Assembly: GCA_041687695.1 (NCBI GenBank)
Contig: JAWLBL010000018.1
Span: forward strand, 32,001 to 96,000
Direction of reading: 5' to 3'
Length of the DNA stretch: 64,000 nt
Source: Myxococcota bacterium
GTDB taxonomy: Bacteria; Myxococcota_A; UBA9042; PHBI01; JAWLBL01
Shown here: positions 2,788 to 22,514 of the stretch, in pieces
Layout: every line of letters begins with the position of its first letter
Numbering within the stretch: position 1 is the stretch's first letter
The notes under the pieces: generated by a model
Databases searched by the model: none
Told to the model about the DNA's origin: nothing
What the model saw: the letters and a program-made list of their open reading frames with translations, nothing else
Program-made: the position numbers and the translations under genes

Positions 2788-3507
2788 CTACAGGGCTAGG
2801 CGCGCCATCACCGGCAGGTGCGTGCTGCCGACCGACGGGATCGCGGTGGCCGGGCCGACGACCTGCACCTCGTGCGAGACGAAGACGTGGTCGATGGCCC
2901 GCTCGGGCGCGCGCGCGGGGAAGGTCGGCTCGGGGTCGTCGCCGCCGGCGTTCTTCAGCGAGACCTCGAGCTGCCGCAGCACGGGGTCGTCCCAGGTCGT
3001 GCCGAAGTCACCCAGCACCAGGATGGGGCTGGCCTGGGTCTGCGCGTGCCGCAGGATGGCGGGGATCTGCGCCGCCCGGTCGACCTCGTTGACGCTCAGC
3101 TGCGTGACCAGCACGCTGACCGGCCCCTTGGGCGTCACCACCGTGCCCGACAGGATGCAGCGCTGCTCGTCTTTGCGTTTGGGCAGCCGGTGGCGCGTCC
3201 ACGGCCCCAGCGGAAAGCGCGACAGCAGCGCCACGCCCAGCCCGGGCCGGTCCTCGGCCGTCGGCGCGGGGATGCGCTCGGGCGGCGTCACCCCCGGCCG
3301 CACCGTCAGCGCCGACGCGAACCGGAAGTGGTTGAGCCCGCTCGCGCGCGCCAGCTTGGCCGCCTGGTGCCCGCCCTCGCCCTCGAGCCAGTCACACCCC
3401 ACCTCCTGGACGGCGACCACGTCGGCCTCGCCCATGAGGCCGGCGACGGTGGCCAGGTCGCTCTCGAGGCCCAGGTGGATGTTGTAGGTCATGACCGTGA
3501 ATTCCAT
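2788..3507 (-). CDS. Endonuclease/exonuclease/phosphatase (EEP) family protein with degenerate active-site motifs
   Basis: MTYNIH, VAVQEV, ALLSRFP, ILVLGDF, PTFPA, IDHVF, STHLPV follow the EEP motif order. Confidence 0.8.
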   Translation of the reverse strand: MEFTVMTYNIHLGLESDLATVAGLMGEADVVAVQEVGCDWLEGEGGHQAAKLARASGLNHFRFASALTVRPGVTPPERIPAPTAEDRPGLGVALLSRFPLGPWTRHRLPKRKDEQRCILSGTVVTPKGPVSVLVTQLSVNEVDRAAQIPAILRHAQTQASPILVLGDFGTTWDDPVLRQLEVSLKNAGGDDPEPTFPARAPERAIDHVFVSHEVQVVGPATAIPSVGSTHLPVMARLAL

Positions 3508-13851: not shown

Positions 13852-14296
13852 GGGGACCCTCTCTTCAGAGACTCTTCATCATCAAAGGAGAGCCTCCATA
13901 GCAGATCCCAGAAGAGAAAGTAAGGGCTGTGGGCGGTGTGGAGCGGCGCCGGAACCACCCGTAAGCCCGAGACAATCGGGATCCTTTTCCCCGGGGATCG
14001 CGCGATCGATCCACAGGGGGACTTCCTGTGGATGACGCGGAGCGTCACGTCGCCCACCGCTCCTCCACAGGGCCGTCACCAGGATGTCAACGCGTTGTCC
14101 ACGGGGGCCTGTGGATCATCGGAGAAAGTCCCCAACGGACTGGGAAATCTTTCGCTCGGACTCCGAACGCAAGAAGGCCGATCGCGCGGGGGGCGCGTCG
14201 GCCTCGGGTGACCGCCGTCGGAGGGCGGTCGGCGCAGGTCGTCCGGCGGGACGCGGGGGTCCCGTCGGCGGAGTCACGCCACGGCTGGCAGGTGGA
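13852..14296. other. Probable chromosomal replication origin (oriC) between dnaA and dnaN
   Basis: DnaA-box-like 9-mers: 14007-14015 CGATCCACA(+), 14027-14035 TCATCCACA(-), 14061-14069 TCCTCCACA(+), 14095-14103 TTGTCCACG(+), 14110-14118 TGATCCACA(-), and two tandem boxes at 13928-13945(-) followed by GCCC and a locally AT-rich tract. Confidence 0.8.
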
Positions 14297-15646
14297 TCAG
14301 TGCGTCAGGCCTCGCCGGAGCCGCTCGATGCGGGCCTTCAGCTCGGGGTCGGCCTCGCGCAGCAGCTCGATGCGCTTCAAGGCGTTGATCACCGTGGTGT
14401 GGTCGCGCCCCCCGAACATCTGCCCGATCTGCGGCAGCGAGCCGTCGGTCAGCTCGCGCACCAGGTGCATCGCCACCTGGCGCGGGACGGTGATGTTGCG
14501 GTGGCGCTTGGGGCCCTTGAGATCGTTGACCGTCAGCCGGTAGTCGGCGGCGACCGCCTTGATGATGGCGTCGGGCGAGACGCGGCGCGCCTCCTCGCTG
14601 ACCAGGTCGCCCAGCACCTCTCGCGTCATGGCGATGGTGATGGGCGTTCCGAAGATGCGGGCGGTCGCCTCGAGGCGCATCAGCGCCCCCTCGAGCTCGC
14701 GCACGTTGGCCACGATGTGGCGCGCGAGCAGCATCGCGACCTCGTCGGGGAGGTCGCAGCCGTCGGCGTCGGCCTTGCGCTTCAAGATGGCGACCCGCGT
14801 CTCGAGCCCCGGCGGCTTGACGTCGGCGATGAGGCCCCACTCGAGGCGGGACTTCAGGCGATCCTCCATGTCGGGGATCGTGCGGGGCGGCTGGTCGCTC
14901 GTCAGCACGATCTGGCGGTGCGACGAGTGCAGCGTGTTGAAGACGTGGAAGAACTCCTCCTCGGTCCGGTCCTTGCCGGCGAGGAACTGGATGTCGTCGA
15001 CCAGCAGGAGATCGCACTCGTCGCGGTACTTGCGGCGGAAGTCGTGGACGCTGTCGGTGCGGATCGCGTTGATGAAGTCGTTGAGGAAGGTCTCGCTGGT
15101 GACGTAGCGGATGCGCGCGCGCGGGTTGCGCTCGGCGACCTCGTGGCCGATGGCGTGGAGCAGGTGCGTCTTGCCCAGGCCCACTCCCCCGTAGATGAAG
15201 AGGGGGTTGTAGCGGGTGCCGGGTCCGTCGGCGACGGCGCGCGCCGCGTTGAGCGCGAACTGGTTGGTCGGGCCGTCGACGAAGCTCTCGAACCGGTAGC
15301 GGGCGATGAGCTCGGGGCGCGGCGTCGGGGCGGCGGGCGCGGTGATCGTCGGCCCGGACCGGTCGGCAGGCGACGCCGGCGCCAGGGCGGCCGCCTGCGC
15401 GTCGTCACCCGGCGTGTCCCAGACGATGCCGTAGTCGGCCAGGCCCTCGCCGGCGAGCGCTTCGGCGATCGTTGGAAGCAGGTGCTCCTCGAGCCAATGC
15501 GCGTGCGACGCGTCGGGGACGCCCAGCACGATCTCGCGGCGCTGGTGATCGACCCGGTGGCACACGATCGGGGCGATCCAGTGCATGTAGTCGTACGGTT
15601 GAATGGTCGACTTCAGCTTGTCGACCGTTCTTTCCCAGACGTTCAA
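14297..15646 (-). CDS. dnaA: Chromosomal replication initiator DnaA
   Basis: [72 protein letters not shown] start. Confidence 0.98.
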
Positions 15647-16981: not shown

Positions 16982-19113
16982 TGATTCGCCCAAGCGCGCG
17001 CGCGCTGATCGCGACCCTGACGGTCACGGCCGCCCTGATGGCCCCGCCAGGCCGCGCCCAGGAGGCGCAGAGCCAGGGGGCCGCCCAGGGCGACGGCGTG
17101 CAGGCGCCCGCCGGACCGGTGATCGAGGTGCCCGGCGAGGTGTCGCGGGCGCGGGTCGAGACCCCGACGGGGCAGCCGATCTCGGACGAGCGCGTCAAGG
17201 TGCGCGTCCCCAAGGCCGATCCCGCGGTCGAGTACGAGTTCACGAGCCGCGGCGGGACGACCCGCGCGGCGCGCATGCTGAACGAGCGCTACACGCGCGA
17301 CGCCCAGCCGGCCGTGCCGGGGGTTCCGGCCGAGAAGGTGGCCGGCGGGCCCATCGATCTGGTGATGACCTGGGACCCCGGGTTCCTGCCGTTCCGGCTC
17401 GAGTTCAGCGAGCTGGCGACCGGGAGCGCGATCACGACCGTCGTGCACCGGGCCCGCGGCGGCGCCCTGGTGGGCGGTCAGCTGCGGCCGCCCGAGGCCG
17501 CGGTCGACGTCGATCAGCGCGTGCGGCCCGGCGATCAGATCGTGATCACGGCGCCGGCCACCGTGGCGGGCACCTTCACCGTGCGCGACGTGGCCGTCGG
17601 CGGCTTCACGCCGGCCGAGACGCTGCCCGTCGCCGACGCGGCGGGCGTGGACTACGAGATCCGGCGCGTCGGTGATCTCAAGGCGCTGTGGGACGCCGGA
17701 CCGACCTTCGCGCGGGTGTCGCAGGGCACCGGCCTGCCGCTGGTCTACGTCTGGCCCGACCCGGCGACCACCGACTCGCCGGTGTATGTCGAGAAGCGCT
17801 TCAGCGCGACCGGCCGCCCCTACCAGCTCGAGCTGGCGGTGACCCTGCACAACGTCGGCGCGGTCGACCTGCGCCACCGCTTCGGGCTGCGGGTCACCGG
17901 GTGGCAGCACCCGTCGATCGGCCCGGGCGGGCTGTTCGAGATCCCGCTGCACACGCTGGCGGGCAGCTGCTGGACCGGCGGCGACCTCGAGCGGCACGAG
18001 TTCGGCTCGCTCGCCGAGGAGCCGCGCAGCTTCTCGACCGACACGTCCTGGGTCGGCGTCGACAGCCGGTACTTCGTCTCGGCGGTCGCCGGGCTGGATC
18101 TTCCGGACGGGCAGTGCGCGCTCGAGGCCAACGCGCAGACGCGCGTCGTCTCGGCGACGCTGTGGCTGCGGGGGGTCCAGACGATCAAGGGGGCGCCCAC
18201 GGCGTGCATCCCGTCGTGGATGGCGCAGCGGCAGCCCGATCGGGTGACCTGCGAGGCCGCGGCGCAGGCCCTGGGCCACCAGCCGACCGACGCGATGCGG
18301 GACATCCGGGCCAGCTGGCAGACCCGCCGGCCCGGCCTCGAGGGCGCCGCGCAGAAGGCGCTGGACGACGCGTGGCAGGCCCTCAGCGCCCGGTCGCGGG
18401 ACGCCTATCGCTTCCTCATCTACACCGGCCCCAAGGACCTCGACGTCCTGAGCCTGGCCGGTCAGAACCTGTCCGAGAGCCTCGACTTCGGCGTGCTGGG
18501 GGTCATCGGCGAGCCGATGCACCGGCTGATGCGCTGGTTCCACGACCTGACGGGCCACTGGGCGCTCGCCATCATCCTGCTGACGCTGCTGGTCAAGCTG
18601 CTGCTGCTGCCGCTGACCAACAAGAGCTTCCAGATGATGCAGAAGATGCAGAAGCTCAAGCCCGAGATGGACGCCCTGCGCGCCAAGCACGGCGAGGATC
18701 GGGTGAAGATCCAGCAGGAGATGATGGCGCTGTACAAGCGCTATCAGGTCAATCCACTGTCGGGCTGCCTGCCGATGGTCATCCAGATGCCGATCTGGCT
18801 CGCCCTGTACCACACCATCGGCTCGGCCGTGGAGCTGTACCACGCGCCCCTCGGGCTGTGGATCCAGGACCTCTCCGCGCCCGATCCCTACTACACCATG
18901 CCCGTTGTGCTCGGCGCCCTGATGCTGGTACAGAGCCACTTCACCACGACCACGCCGATGGAAGGCTTCCAGGGCAAGTTCCTGAAGTACGGCATGCCGG
19001 CCATGTTCAGCATCTTCATGCTGTTCCTGCCGAGCGGGCTCGTCCTGTACATCCTCGTCAACACCCTGCTGACCATCATCCAGAACATCATCATCCGGCG
19101 GCGCATGGCATGA
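16978..19113 (+). CDS. yidC: Membrane protein insertase YidC, long form
   Basis: YTGPK, LDFG, WALAIILLTLLVK, NPLSGCLPMVIQMPIW, WIQDLSAPDP, PSGLVLY. Confidence 0.95.
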   Translation: MMIRPSARALIATLTVTAALMAPPGRAQEAQSQGAAQGDGVQAPAGPVIEVPGEVSRARVETPTGQPISDERVKVRVPKADPAVEYEFTSRGGTTRAARMLNERYTRDAQPAVPGVPAEKVAGGPIDLVMTWDPGFLPFRLEFSELATGSAITTVVHRARGGALVGGQLRPPEAAVDVDQRVRPGDQIVITAPATVAGTFTVRDVAVGGFTPAETLPVADAAGVDYEIRRVGDLKALWDAGPTFARVSQGTGLPLVYVWPDPATTDSPVYVEKRFSATGRPYQLELAVTLHNVGAVDLRHRFGLRVTGWQHPSIGPGGLFEIPLHTLAGSCWTGGDLERHEFGSLAEEPRSFSTDTSWVGVDSRYFVSAVAGLDLPDGQCALEANAQTRVVSATLWLRGVQTIKGAPTACIPSWMAQRQPDRVTCEAAAQALGHQPTDAMRDIRASWQTRRPGLEGAAQKALDDAWQALSARSRDAYRFLIYTGPKDLDVLSLAGQNLSESLDFGVLGVIGEPMHRLMRWFHDLTGHWALAIILLTLLVKLLLLPLTNKSFQMMQKMQKLKPEMDALRAKHGEDRVKIQQEMMALYKRYQVNPLSGCLPMVIQMPIWLALYHTIGSAVELYHAPLGLWIQDLSAPDPYYTMPVVLGALMLVQSHFTTTTPMEGFQGKFLKYGMPAMFSIFMLFLPSGLVLYILVNTLLTIIQNIIIRRRMA

Positions 19114-20105
19114 GCAAGAACACCTACACGGGCAAGAACATCGAGACGGCCGTGGCGAACGCCGCCAAGAAGCTGGGCGTGGCGCCGGACGCGCTGAACT
19201 ACGAGGTCCTCGCCGGCCAGGCCGGCGGGTTCGCGCTGATCAAGGTCGTCGAAGGCGGCCCGAAGGCCACCGACCTCGTCGAGAAGCTGAGCGGTCCGGC
19301 GGCCGAGGGCGCTCCGGCGGCCGAGGGCGCCGAGGCGCGCGAAGAGGCGCCGCGCGAGGAGCGACGCGAGCGGCGCGAGGACCGTGGCGAGCGCGGTGAG
19401 CGCGGCGGGCGCGGCGAGCGCGGTGACCGTGGCGAGCGCGGTGACCGTGGCGAGCGCGGTGACCGTGGGGGCCGGGGCCGCGGGCGGCGCGACGACCGCC
19501 GGGGCGGCCGCGACGACCGTCGGGGCCGTGACCGCGATCGCGACGAGCGTCCGCGGCGTCGGCGCGACGACGAGCCGCTGCCCGTGCCGGCCGACGGGCC
19601 GACCGAGGTGCTGCTCGAGGTGGCCGAGGGCACGACCCTGAGCGAGATCGGCGAGGACGCACACGAGGTGATGCGGGACATCCTGACCGGCATGGGCTTC
19701 GGGATGCGCGTGGTCCTCACCGAGAGCGAGGACACGGTCCACTTCCAGCTCCACAGCGGCGTCTATCACGACGCGCTGGTGGCCAACGATCTCGAGGTGC
19801 TCGACGGCATCGAGTACCTCATCGACAAGATCGTGAACTTCGACGCCGAGGACCGGCGCCGCATCGTCGTCGACTCCGAGGGCTACAAGGAGCGCGCCGA
19901 CGTGGATCTGGGCGACTCGGCCCGCGAGCTGGCCCAGCGGGCCATGGACGAGGGCCGGACCCTGAAGATGGGCCCCCTCGACGCGCGCTCGCGCCGCATC
20001 GTCCACATCGCCCTGCGCGAGATCGACGGCGTGACCACGATGAGCGAGGGCGAGGGCGCCTTCCGCCGGGTCTGCATCATCCCGAAGAACCTGACCGAGG
20101 CCTGA
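19110..20105 (+). CDS. jag: Jag/KhpB/EloR RNA-binding protein (Jag_N, degenerate KH, R3H)
   Basis: Jag_N GKNIETAV..AAKKLG; IVVDSEGYKER; R3H RRIVH and MSEGEG..RRV; ATG overlaps the yidC stop. Confidence 0.88.
   Translation: MSKNTYTGKNIETAVANAAKKLGVAPDALNYEVLAGQAGGFALIKVVEGGPKATDLVEKLSGPAAEGAPAAEGAEAREEAPREERRERREDRGERGERGGRGERGDRGERGDRGERGDRGGRGRGRRDDRRGGRDDRRGRDRDRDERPRRRRDDEPLPVPADGPTEVLLEVAEGTTLSEIGEDAHEVMRDILTGMGFGMRVVLTESEDTVHFQLHSGVYHDALVANDLEVLDGIEYLIDKIVNFDAEDRRRIVVDSEGYKERADVDLGDSARELAQRAMDEGRTLKMGPLDARSRRIVHIALREIDGVTTMSEGEGAFRRVCIIPKNLTEA
19380..19468 (+). repeat. Intragenic 18-bp/9-bp tandem repeat encoding (DRGERG)n
   Basis: Repeated GACCGTGGCGAGCGCGGT units within jag. Confidence 0.85.
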
Positions 20106-20148
20106 TCGCCGGGCGCGCCGGGGGCGGGTCGATGGGCCCGTCCTCCCG

Positions 20149-21620
20149 GCCGGCTGGAAGAGGGTGTCGTATTGATGCCGGCGGAGGCGGCCCTGGAGTG
20201 CTCCGGCTTGCCGGAGCCCCGGCCCCGGCGGCTTGCCGCCGGGATCTGGCCGCCAGACCCGGCGCAGCAAGCTGCGCCGGATGGGGGCTCCACCAAGGTG
20301 GAGCACTCCGGTTGGGCTCTTGCGACACCTTCTGGAAGACGGCGGTCCCAGGGGGGTGACCGCTGGGATCGGCGGTGACTCGGCCGGCTGGAAGCCGGCG
20401 GTCCCAGGCGGGCGGCCGCTGGGATGGGCGGTGCGCTCGGCCGGCTGGAAGAGGGTGTCGTATTGATGCCGGCGGAGGCGGCCCTGGAGTGCTCCGGCTT
20501 GCCGGAGCCCCGGCCCCGGCGGCTTGCCGCCGGGATCTGGCCGCCAGACCCGGCGCAGCAAGCTGCGCCGGATGGGGGCTCCACCAAGGTGGAGCACTCC
20601 GGTTGGGCTCTTGCGACACCTTCTGGAAGACGGCGGTCCCAGGGGGGTGACCGCTGGGATCGGCGGTGACTCGGCCGGCTGGAAGCCGGCGGTCCCAGGC
20701 GGGCGGCCGCTGGGATGGGCGGTGCGCTCGGCCGGCTGGAAGCCGGCGATCCCAGGGGGCTGGCCGCTGAGTTCGGCGGTGAGCTCGACCGCCTGGAAGG
20801 CGGCGGTCCCGCGCCTGAGCGCAGGGATCGGCGGGGACTCGGCCGGCTGGAAGAGGGTGTCGTACTGATGCCGGCGGAGGTGGCCTTGGAGTGCTGCGGC
20901 TTGCCGGAGCCCCGGCCCCGGCGGCTTGCCGCCGGGATCTGGCCGCCAGACCCGGCGCAGCAAGCTGCTGCCGGATGGGGGCTCCACCAAGGTGGAGCAC
21001 TCCGGTTGGCCTTGCGATACCCTCTGGAAGCCGGCGGTCCCAGGGGCTGCAGTCCCTGCATCGTCGCTAACCCGGCCGGCTGGAAGAGGGCGATCCCAGG
21101 GGGCTGACCGCAGGGATCGGCGGTGACGCGGCCGGCTGGAAGAGGGTGTCGTATTGATGCCGGCTGGGCGGCCTTGGAGTGCTCCGGCTTGCCGGAGCCC
21201 CGGCCCCGGCGGCTTGCCGCCGGGATCTGGCCGCCAGACCCGGCGCAGCAAGCTGCGCCGGATGGGGGCTCCACCAAGGTGGAGCACTCCGGTTGGCCTT
21301 GCGATACCCTCTGGAAGCCGGCGGTCCCAGGGGCTGCAGTCCCTGCATCGTCGCTAACCCGGCCGGCTGGAAGAGGGCGATCCCAGGGGGCTGACCGCAG
21401 GGATCGGCGGTGACGCGGCCGGCTGGAAGAGGGTGTCGTATTGATGCCGGCTGGGCGGCCTTGGAGTGCTCCGGCTTGCCGGAGCCCCGGCCCCGGCGGC
21501 TTGCCGCCGGGAGCCGGCCGCCCAACCCGGCGCAGCAAGCTGCGCCGGATGGGGGCTCCACCAAGGTGGAGCACTCCGGTTGGGCTTTTGCGACACCGGC
21601 TGGAAGCCGGCGGTCCCAGG
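20149..21620. repeat. Mosaic palindromic (REP/BIME-like) array: five 175-178 bp modules and ten 54-57 bp modules
   Basis: 16 CTGGAAG sites (20154, 20332, 20388, 20445, 20623, 20679, 20736, 20793, 20847, 21024, 21080, 21136, 21311, 21367, 21423, 21600); long modules contain GGAGTGCTCCGG-CTTG-CCGGAGC ... GCTCCAC-CAAG-GTGGAGCACTCC. Confidence 0.92.
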
Positions 21621-21632
21621 CCGGCGTTCGGA

Positions 21633-22514
21633 TCAGGGCTTGGGGCGGCAGGCGCGGCGCCAGCGGGGCTCGACCGGCGGGTCGGAGACGCGCTCGAGGG
21701 GGACCAGCTCGACCTGGTCGCCGTTGGCCTCCAGGAACCGGCGCAGCGCCTCGACGGTCTCGGGGTACGGGTGGCCGATGGCGACCGCGTGGCCACGCGC
21801 CTGGGCGAGGCGCAGCGCTTGCTCGAGCTGGGAGACGATGGCGCCGACCTCGCGGTCGTTGTCCAGGAAGACGTCGCGCTCGGCGACGGGCCGGCGGCCG
21901 CGGGCCTGGCTGGCCAGCTGCGAGCGGCGGGTCGTGCGGCTGTCGAGGACGACGAAGTCGCGGGGCAGGAGGTCGACGACCTCGCGCATGACGCTCGGCT
22001 CGCGGGTGAGCCGGCTGCCCATGTGGTTGTTGAGGCCGATGGCGCCCGGGACCTCGGCCAGCGCGCGCGTCAGGACAAGCCGCCGCGTCTCGGGCGCGTC
22101 GTCCTGGCGGAGGAAGTTCGGCAGGGTCATGTGGTCGGCGCGCATGGGCTCCATCGGCTGGTGGACCAGCACCGAGGCGCCTCGCGCCGACAGCCAGCGC
22201 GCGTACTCGGCGCCCCAGCGCGAGCCGGGCAGGATGGCCCAGGTCAGCGGCGCGCCCAGGGCCCACAGGGGCTGCACCTGATCGGGGTGCAGGCCCAGGT
22301 CGTCGATGACCACGGTCAGCTTGGGCAGGCCGCGCGGCGCGCGCGGGGCGACGCCGTCGACGCCGTGTGGGACGAGGTCGACCTCTGGAGCCGCGGAGGC
22401 GAAGCGGCACAGGTCCGCGGCGGGCGGCGGCGCGGCCGGCGCGCCCGAGCAGCCGGTGACGAGACCAATCCAGGCCCACGCCGCGACCGCGCGGGCCGGA
22501 GTCAGCGCAGCCAC
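21633..22514 (-). CDS. Divergent polysaccharide deacetylase family lipoprotein (YibQ-like)
   Basis: VVIDDLG, LTWAILP, VLVHQPMEP, GLNNHMGS, LDSRT, RDVFLDN, VAIGHP; lipobox-like VTGC; downstream of envC as in the conserved envC-yibQ arrangement. Confidence 0.88.
   Translation of the reverse strand: MAALTPARAVAAWAWIGLVTGCSGAPAAPPPAADLCRFASAAPEVDLVPHGVDGVAPRAPRGLPKLTVVIDDLGLHPDQVQPLWALGAPLTWAILPGSRWGAEYARWLSARGASVLVHQPMEPMRADHMTLPNFLRQDDAPETRRLVLTRALAEVPGAIGLNNHMGSRLTREPSVMREVVDLLPRDFVVLDSRTTRRSQLASQARGRRPVAERDVFLDNDREVGAIVSQLEQALRLAQARGHAVAIGHPYPETVEALRRFLEANGDQVELVPLERVSDPPVEPRWRRACRPKP

Follow-up and report, generated by a model that had tools for sequence, protein, structure and literature searches.

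A short intergenic region of a Myxococcota genome raises the question of how a palindrome array in which every module meets its neighbor at the same heptamer came into being. The region lies at positions 20149–21620 of the window, by which we mean the whole 64,000-nucleotide stretch analyzed here (contig JAWLBL010000018.1), and contains 16 CTGGAAG heptamers, which start at positions 20154, 20332, 20388, 20445, 20623, 20679, 20736, 20793, 20847, 21024, 21080, 21136, 21311, 21367, 21423, and 21600. The spacings between them (178, 56, 57, 178, 56, 57, 57, 54, 177, 56, 56, 175, 56, 56, and 177 bp) define long (L) and short (S) modules in the order L-S-S-L-S-S-S-S-L-S-S-L-S-S-L, and the count, lengths, and order given by the first-pass annotation proved exact. 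That annotation proposed that the modules had been excised, inserted, and amplified by an HUH enzyme through strand exchange at the heptamer, as a cassette-like system. In our analysis the array is explained by known parts: it is a variant of known selfish DNA and not a new cassette system. With a probability of roughly 0.85, it consists of tandem REP-like hairpins, five of which were split by a MITE served by an IS1182 element, and which were multiplied afterwards by unequal recombination. No cellular function of the array is needed by this explanation.

The array occupies the entire gap between two convergent genes, a jag/eloR-like gene (19110–20105, plus strand; match to NF041568 below the curated cut-off) and a divergent polysaccharide deacetylase gene (21633–22505, minus strand; PF04748). 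A low-complexity repeat of Arg, Gly, Asp, and Glu, built of RGERGD units, lies within the jag gene at 19370–19570 and has a different length in the contigs of a relative. A dnaA gene is located at 14297–15646 and three DnaA-box-like 9-mers at 14027–14118, whereas the window-wide number of such 9-mers, eight, does not exceed chance expectation, being reached in 9 of 100 shuffles. The proximity to oriC to which attention had been drawn is incidental to the array, because its modules are repeats dispersed over the whole genome in 117 clusters. There were no Rfam matches at E ≤ 1 in 19900–21900, and neither sigma-70 promoters nor intrinsic terminators were found in 20050–21700. Long open reading frames running across the array are products of GC-rich in-frame repeats and were not accepted as genes, and a CRISPR array was ruled out by spacers that are repeated and homologous.

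The short module consists of a dispersed REP-like hairpin and a spacer. The hairpin that had been seen around CTGGAAG is real, but its outer C and G pair with each other, and the loop is therefore only the 5-nt TGGAA; at the junctions of long modules, these outer G and C are part of the ends of the inserted element itself. On the plus strand, the hairpin of the array reads GCCGGC-TGGAA-GCCGGC-G[GA]TCCCAGG. With up to two mismatches allowed, its right half is matched at 265 sites of the genome (7.97 Mb), far above the chance level indicated by the 20 matches of the reversed pattern; the 265 sites make up the 117 clusters, and 144 of them are empty, 93 abut a MITE end, and 28 are of other kinds. 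Within the window, 11 right halves lie in the array and none elsewhere. The sequence is thus a high-copy short palindrome, as are canonical REPs, and it is intergenic in this array. All 148 neighboring pairs within 400 bp are in direct orientation, and no inverted doublet of the REPIN build occurs among them. The two most frequent tags are GGAT-C (n = 116) and GGAC-C (n = 53), and not the GT[AG]G tetranucleotide that stands at the stem foot of canonical REPs as described in the accessible text of PMC6006769; the hairpin is therefore classified as a REP-like variant. The ends of its tandem runs are equally characteristic. After exclusion of ends adjoining a MITE or a contig edge, 32 tandem runs provided 18 usable left ends and 16 usable right ends. 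On the left, identity to the neighboring unit is 17–18/18 until six bases before the loop and 6–12/18 beyond; on the right, it is 14–16/16 up to +15 past the loop, 12/16 at +17, and 4–9/16 beyond. Beyond the outer edges of the left arm and the tag, neighboring units are no longer alike, indicating that the runs begin and end on whole hairpins rather than at the loop.

The long module is a MITE of 170–173 bp, and its near-complementary ends, noticed already in the first-pass annotation, are inverted repeats of one another. It is short, gene-less (too short to encode a transposase), and dispersed, with 169 non-overlapping matches in the genome, 109 of which are at least 150 nt long. When 88 partial, contig-end, or end-deficient matches were set aside, 81 complete copies were left, and both ends of these carry 12-bp terminal inverted repeats, GAGG[GC]TGTCG[CT]A. 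An exact 5-bp target duplication flanks 51 of the 81 copies and a duplication with one mismatch flanks 23 more, whereas exact duplications of 4, 6, or 7 bp flank none and one of 3 bp flanks a single copy. The duplicated loop reads TGGAA in 44 copies, TTCCA in 26, and otherwise in 11, which shows that the element was inserted in both orientations, and the two orientations are mixed together on the tree. Variant targets yield variant duplications (AAGTA, TATGG, TTTCG, and TCGAA). The combination of a target-derived 5-bp duplication, terminal inverted repeats, and both orientations is the signature of a DDE transposase rather than of HUH strand exchange. HUH transposition is not known to make a target duplication, and neither the absence of a duplication nor the polar insertion expected of an HUH cassette was found for the long module. 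Target duplications are a general product of DDE transposition (PMC5678879). CTGGAAG recurs at every junction since G is the first base of the MITE and C the last. Elsewhere in the genome, three copies at a spacing of 241 bp on C21 are MITEs with TTCCA duplications, and at C18:16256–16936 four tandem 174-bp MITE copies lacking the left end follow three empty hairpins. A separate 164-bp element, present at C26:72619–72782 and in at least eight other near-full copies, has the ends GAGGCTGTAGTGAATAA...TTATTCACCACAGCCTC and CTAGC on both flanks, and looks like a second, CTAG-targeting IS1182-type MITE.

Read in this way, the whole array (20149–21620) resolves into 11 REP-like hairpins in direct tandem, 10 short spacers, and five MITE insertions, and the 11 hairpins remain once the five MITEs are taken out. 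On the plus strand, the left arm of the first hairpin and its loop TGGAA, the first copy of the target duplication, occupy 20149–20159, and are followed by MITE copy L1 (20160–20332, 173 bp), which has the ends GAGGGTGTCGTA...TGCGACACCTTC and TGGAA on both flanks. Copy L2 (20451–20623) is identical to L1, and L3 (20853–21024, 172 bp), L4 (21142–21311, 170 bp), and L5 (21429–21600, 172 bp) follow on the same strand. An unoccupied hairpin lies at 20383–20408 (minus strand), and others are centered at 20679, 20736, and 20793. The many junctions with mismatched arms that had been reported are real: over the 6 bp outside TGGAA, pairing is 6/6 at three junctions, 5/6 at two, 4/6 at four, and 3/6 at seven. 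The right end of L5 closes with GGC, which gives a matched stem again at that junction, and in the hairpin centered at 20793 (20788–20805) both arms have changed with pairing kept. Four MITE ends (21589–21611 in the window, and one each on C3, C27, and C30) have arm-like last bases that restore a matched stem. Together with the paired arm changes at 20788–20805, these ends suggest template-switch repair or selection for the hairpin. A chimeric hairpin whose right arm opens with GAGGG, like a MITE end, is located at 21075–21100 (plus strand), with a second copy centered at 21367. These two are the only ones in the whole genome, and each is likely to be the scar of a deleted MITE.

Two tandem duplications probably account for the further growth of the array. 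The first, of 291 bp, spans 20147–20742 (plus strand) with an exact match of 305 bp and produced L2; its crossover fell within the 14 bp CGGCCGGCTGGAAG common to two hairpins, loop included, a position that fits exchange at the loop and equally well plain recombination between repeats. The second, of 287 bp, spans 20970–21512 (plus strand) with an exact match of 256 bp. Copy L4 is a hybrid, whose diagnostic sites in the 5′ part are those of L5 and in the 3′ part those of L3, bar one single-base insertion in L3 that appears to be a later event; the switch lies between alignment columns 45 and 85. The crossover of the 287-bp duplication therefore lies within the MITE. In a tree test, a single clade of the five MITEs of the array was neither established nor rejected (p-AU 0.36). 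A feasible model has three steps. The hairpin would have dispersed over the genome, probably with the help of the RAYT-like enzyme of contig C22, whose gene it flanks, and would then have formed tandem runs of 54–57 bp. A DDE transposase may next have recognized the palindrome GCCGGC-N5-GCCGGC, where a 5-nt staggered cut across the loop would admit the MITE in either orientation and duplicate the loop, as the insertion signature suggests. The diagnostic sites suggest that at most three insertions (L1, L3, and L5) were followed by the two tandem duplications, one with its crossover in the 14-bp hairpin half and the other with its crossover inside the MITE.

A profile search with PF01797 gave 11 matches in this genome. 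None of the Y1 transposases is encoded on this contig, in line with the earlier remark that the window encodes no enzyme. A search for an HUH gene flanked by the hairpin, as that annotation had recommended, led to the RAYT-like gene on C22 (locus L008), which has one inverted hairpin copy upstream and five matched copies downstream, the 3′ units being 57–58 bp each. Its match to PF01797 is above the cut-off and its product contains the MPNHVH and YVEDNP motifs; the NF047646 score is 73.8 against a cut-off of 80, and no ATG, GTG, or TTG precedes the conserved N-terminal motif. In view of the low score and the missing start, the gene may be inactive, as far as its sequence tells. The translated hairpin motif occurs in 11 of the 120 homologs listed for this gene, so the pairing of gene and hairpin recurs. 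Four related RAYT-like genes are present (C15:152057, C26:55275–56171, C47:3–674, and C54:320–976), three of which have an HRWPH or PRWPH motif; GGAG-tagged repeat arrays lie beside those on C15, C26, and C54, and none was seen beside that on C47. Longer Y1 transposase genes or fragments on C40, C48, C53, C59, and C61 carry short repeats at their ends, for example GACTTGACCCC and GGGGCCACGTCC, with no hairpin array seen. Presumably, they resemble RAYT group 1/subclass 2.1.

These observations allow the competing explanations to be weighed. Two observations favor a cassette system in which a RAYT excised, circularized, and reinserted long as well as short modules at the loop: the RAYT-like gene on C22 is flanked by the hairpin, and the crossover of the 291-bp duplication lies in the 14 bp that contain the loop; the chimeric junctions, two with a MITE-like right arm and four with a hairpin-like MITE end, could also be read in this sense. 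However, the duplicated pentamer varies with the target, the element occurs in both orientations, its ends match those of a DDE element, the runs of short modules end on whole hairpins, and the 287-bp crossover lies inside the MITE. The idea that a circularized module would restore a matched hairpin is sound insofar as the two terminal inverted repeats would then enclose one copy of the duplication, but the predicted circle junction occurs zero times in the assembly. Breakpoints fall at the loop where MITEs entered, and the 291-bp crossover lies within CGGCCGGCTGGAAG, which includes the loop, but the other crossover and the run ends lie elsewhere. Strand exchange by an HUH enzyme is thus very unlikely to have built the array. 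The genome-wide counts that had been proposed as a check (265 hairpin sites and 169 MITE-family matches) show both modules to be dispersed, and the comparison of the hairpin with REPs that had been drawn holds. Another possibility is that number and order of the modules are in part an artifact of assembling a repeat-rich metagenome. The first two units are identical over 305 bp, hairpin or MITE motifs stand at 27 of 126 contig ends, and the array is covered by none of the four sequencing runs examined, from a list of six that share a small part of the sequence and include no RNA run. On the other hand, the window contains no N, the copies differ at diagnostic sites, and dozens of unique loci, as well as other genomes, show the same junction between MITE and loop, which leaves at most the number of units in doubt and makes an artifact exceedingly improbable. 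In a relative (runs X1 and X2; 49–50 differences over about 600 bases of jag), contigs join position 20108 to 21739 with 175 letters between, indicating that the array is missing at that site, at a likeness of 80% at which joints can come from other organisms; the X1 contig has 80 letters on its short side and matches both flanking genes.

In another alternative, the long module is a MITE as described but was moved by a different DDE family with similar ends (IS5/IS4-like). No partner transposase of the IS1182 or IS4/5 type was found in this genome (99% complete, 63 contigs), which gave zero matches to PF05598, PF13751, PF01609, NF033551, and the protein of L034, the IS1182 element described below; the enzyme that moves the MITE is thus a putative one. 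Among 36 IS1182-family loci from relatives, 10 have both a duplication and ends within three mismatches of those of the MITE, and all 10 duplications are of 4 bp (eight CTAG, and two in hairpin loops, at L034 and L029); no 5-bp duplication occurs among the 36. The autonomous element L034 (G173, same class) is 1802 bp long and encodes a transposase with DDE_Tnp_1_6 and DUF772 domains (NF033551, 283 bits against a cut-off of 270). Its ends match the 12-mer of the MITE at 11/12 and 12/12 positions, in an end comparison that covered IS1182 loci only, and its duplication is the loop GGAA of a hairpin adjoining a Y1-transposase-like frame. The element stands between this minus-strand frame and a GTAG-tagged palindrome (L034:600–1170 and 2976–3030), and its site is inside a REPtron-like locus. 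At L081 (G193), a right end identical to that of the MITE adjoins a hairpin arm. Same-ended MITEs with different interiors and 5-bp duplications lie in hairpin loops in G010 (142–143 bp), G399 (254 bp), and G009 (120 bp); in a further one, in G204, the duplication is imperfect. In G009 and G010, both of which have such MITEs, the IS1182-like fragments show no matching ends, and G010 has no match to PF05598 and one to PF01609. The IS1182-like fragment L124 (G010:C23), which ends in CTAG and is interrupted by one internal stop, neighbors a dnaA-like gene; an empty hairpin of the kind into which the G010 MITE inserts precedes the fragment. The exact 23-base junction pattern gave two matches in a collection of genome contigs, not independent of the loci already counted, and none in metagenome contigs. 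Of three loci related to L034 that a search identified, one is identical to it and two are weak matches, and a plasmid search gave one match of 32.5% identity. The right-end 14-mer is matched in 18 of 107 same-class genomes; 25 right-end loci from other genomes comprised one complete MITE, two IS1182 elements already known, and 22 with no partner end under the filter, several of which look like coding sequence. Since the searches yielded no autonomous element with a duplication of 5 bp, the assignment to IS1182 is likely only. One difficulty is the contrast between the 5-bp duplication here and the 4 bp of all 10 matching elements, and the lack of a partner in this genome, G009, or G010, as well as the reports of REP targeting by the IS3, IS110, IS4, IS256, and IS5 families (PMC1525189), would also suit a different family. 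Against this, L034 closely matches the terminal 12-mer and likewise targets loops, and a mover outside IS1182 appears improbable. Thus, the MITE is likely moved in trans by an IS1182-family DDE transposase, as its ends and targets suggest.

The interior of the MITE is itself REP-like. Copy L1 contains two GGAG-tagged palindromes, B1 (20194–20216, plus strand; present also in L2–L5) and B2 (20287–20309, minus strand), which is inverted relative to B1. The two pair in the fold and form an inverted doublet, as in a REPIN, within a long rod of −67.3 kcal/mol (DNA parameters, without a shuffle control). The same build is common to the repeats beside the RAYT-like genes on C26 and C54. In the frequent variant of the palindrome, both arms are altered together (111 against 48 copies). 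Nearly all genome copies are within MITE matches (B1, 165/168; B2, 107/107), and free copies are almost absent. A second same-ended MITE family with the same loop target is represented by two copies of 217–218 bp (C32:13928–14145 and C45:457–673), in which a stretch of 80 nt has about 80% identity (E 1e-14) to the unit repeated next to the RAYT-like gene on C54, as repeated capture of cargo would predict. The main MITE interior matches the C54 unit weakly: the window copy scores 33, a value reached by 2 of 200 shuffles, and two variant copies score 48 and 49 (0/200). None of the three copies exceeds shuffles against the C15 unit, and one of three does so against that of C26. It is plausible that the MITE captured a REP as cargo. 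It is also tempting to speculate on a three-tier parasite, in which a RAYT lays hairpin pads and an IS1182-ended MITE lands in their loops, carrying the REP doublet of a second RAYT family; we regard this as possible but rather doubtful. The near confinement of B1 and B2 to MITEs fits the DDE-driven spread of REPs that such a parasite would entail.

The components have counterparts in published systems, as far as the accessible parts of the papers describe them. Hairpin targeting by IS1182 elements (PMC5678879; PMC4923244, both with reference to Siguier et al., 2015, on the palindrome targets of this family), IS1182-related MITEs (PMC11578231), insertion of IS elements at the symmetry axis of REPs (PMC1525189), and tandem REP arrays (PMC3116915) have all been published. 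IS1272/TnSha1 of the IS1182 family targets hairpins, as does the present MITE, and the duplication of the loop alone corresponds to pathway c in the model figure of PMC5678879. By contrast, IS1272 deletes the stem-loop and makes no duplication, whereas the element described here is non-autonomous, produces a 5-bp duplication, and targets mostly one REP-like family. MITEPye1 of Paracoccus yeei (IS1182-related; PMC11578231) is likewise short and gene-less, with IS1182-like terminal repeats, a target duplication, an intergenic location, and a long hairpin fold. It differs in its 4-bp repeats and 1–3 copies per chromosome, against 5 bp and 81 complete copies (169 matches) here, and the accessible text describes no REP targeting for it, whereas REP-like loops and a REP-like interior are found here. 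ISPsy8 (IS3) and ISRm22 (PMC1525189), as well as IS1397 and IS621 (PMC3184786), interrupt REPs at the symmetry axis and leave a short direct repeat, in many cases within clusters of REPs, as this MITE does; however, these elements are autonomous and belong to other families, and IS1182 is not among the five listed in the available part of PMC1525189. As in REP/REPIN systems with a RAYT (TnpA-REP; PMC6006769), a high-copy palindrome flanks a Y1 HUH gene in inverted orientation, but those systems have the GT[AG]G tag, whereas the present hairpin has GGAT or GGAC and no inverted doublets. Its RAYT is likely to belong to subclass 2.4 of Quentin et al. (PMC6006769), judging by the description in the accessible part of that paper. 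The tandem REP arrays of Pseudomonas fluorescens SBW25 are evenly spaced, like this one (PMC3116915).

In the literature readable without subscription, ISfinder and supplementary files not included, we found no description of an IS1182-type MITE that lies in REP loops and carries REPs. With 93 of 265 hairpins abutting a MITE end, this genome provides a well-counted case of a MITE landing in REP-like loops, and the L034 transposase is a concrete reagent for studying how an IS1182 enzyme picks hairpin loops. If the three-tier arrangement were true, these REPs would owe their dispersal to a DDE enzyme instead of their own RAYT, and the MITE could serve as a substrate for both a DDE and an HUH enzyme. 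If the MITE indeed captured its REP cargo, hitchhiking on a DDE element would be a second route of REP dispersal, which would bear on how REPs spread.
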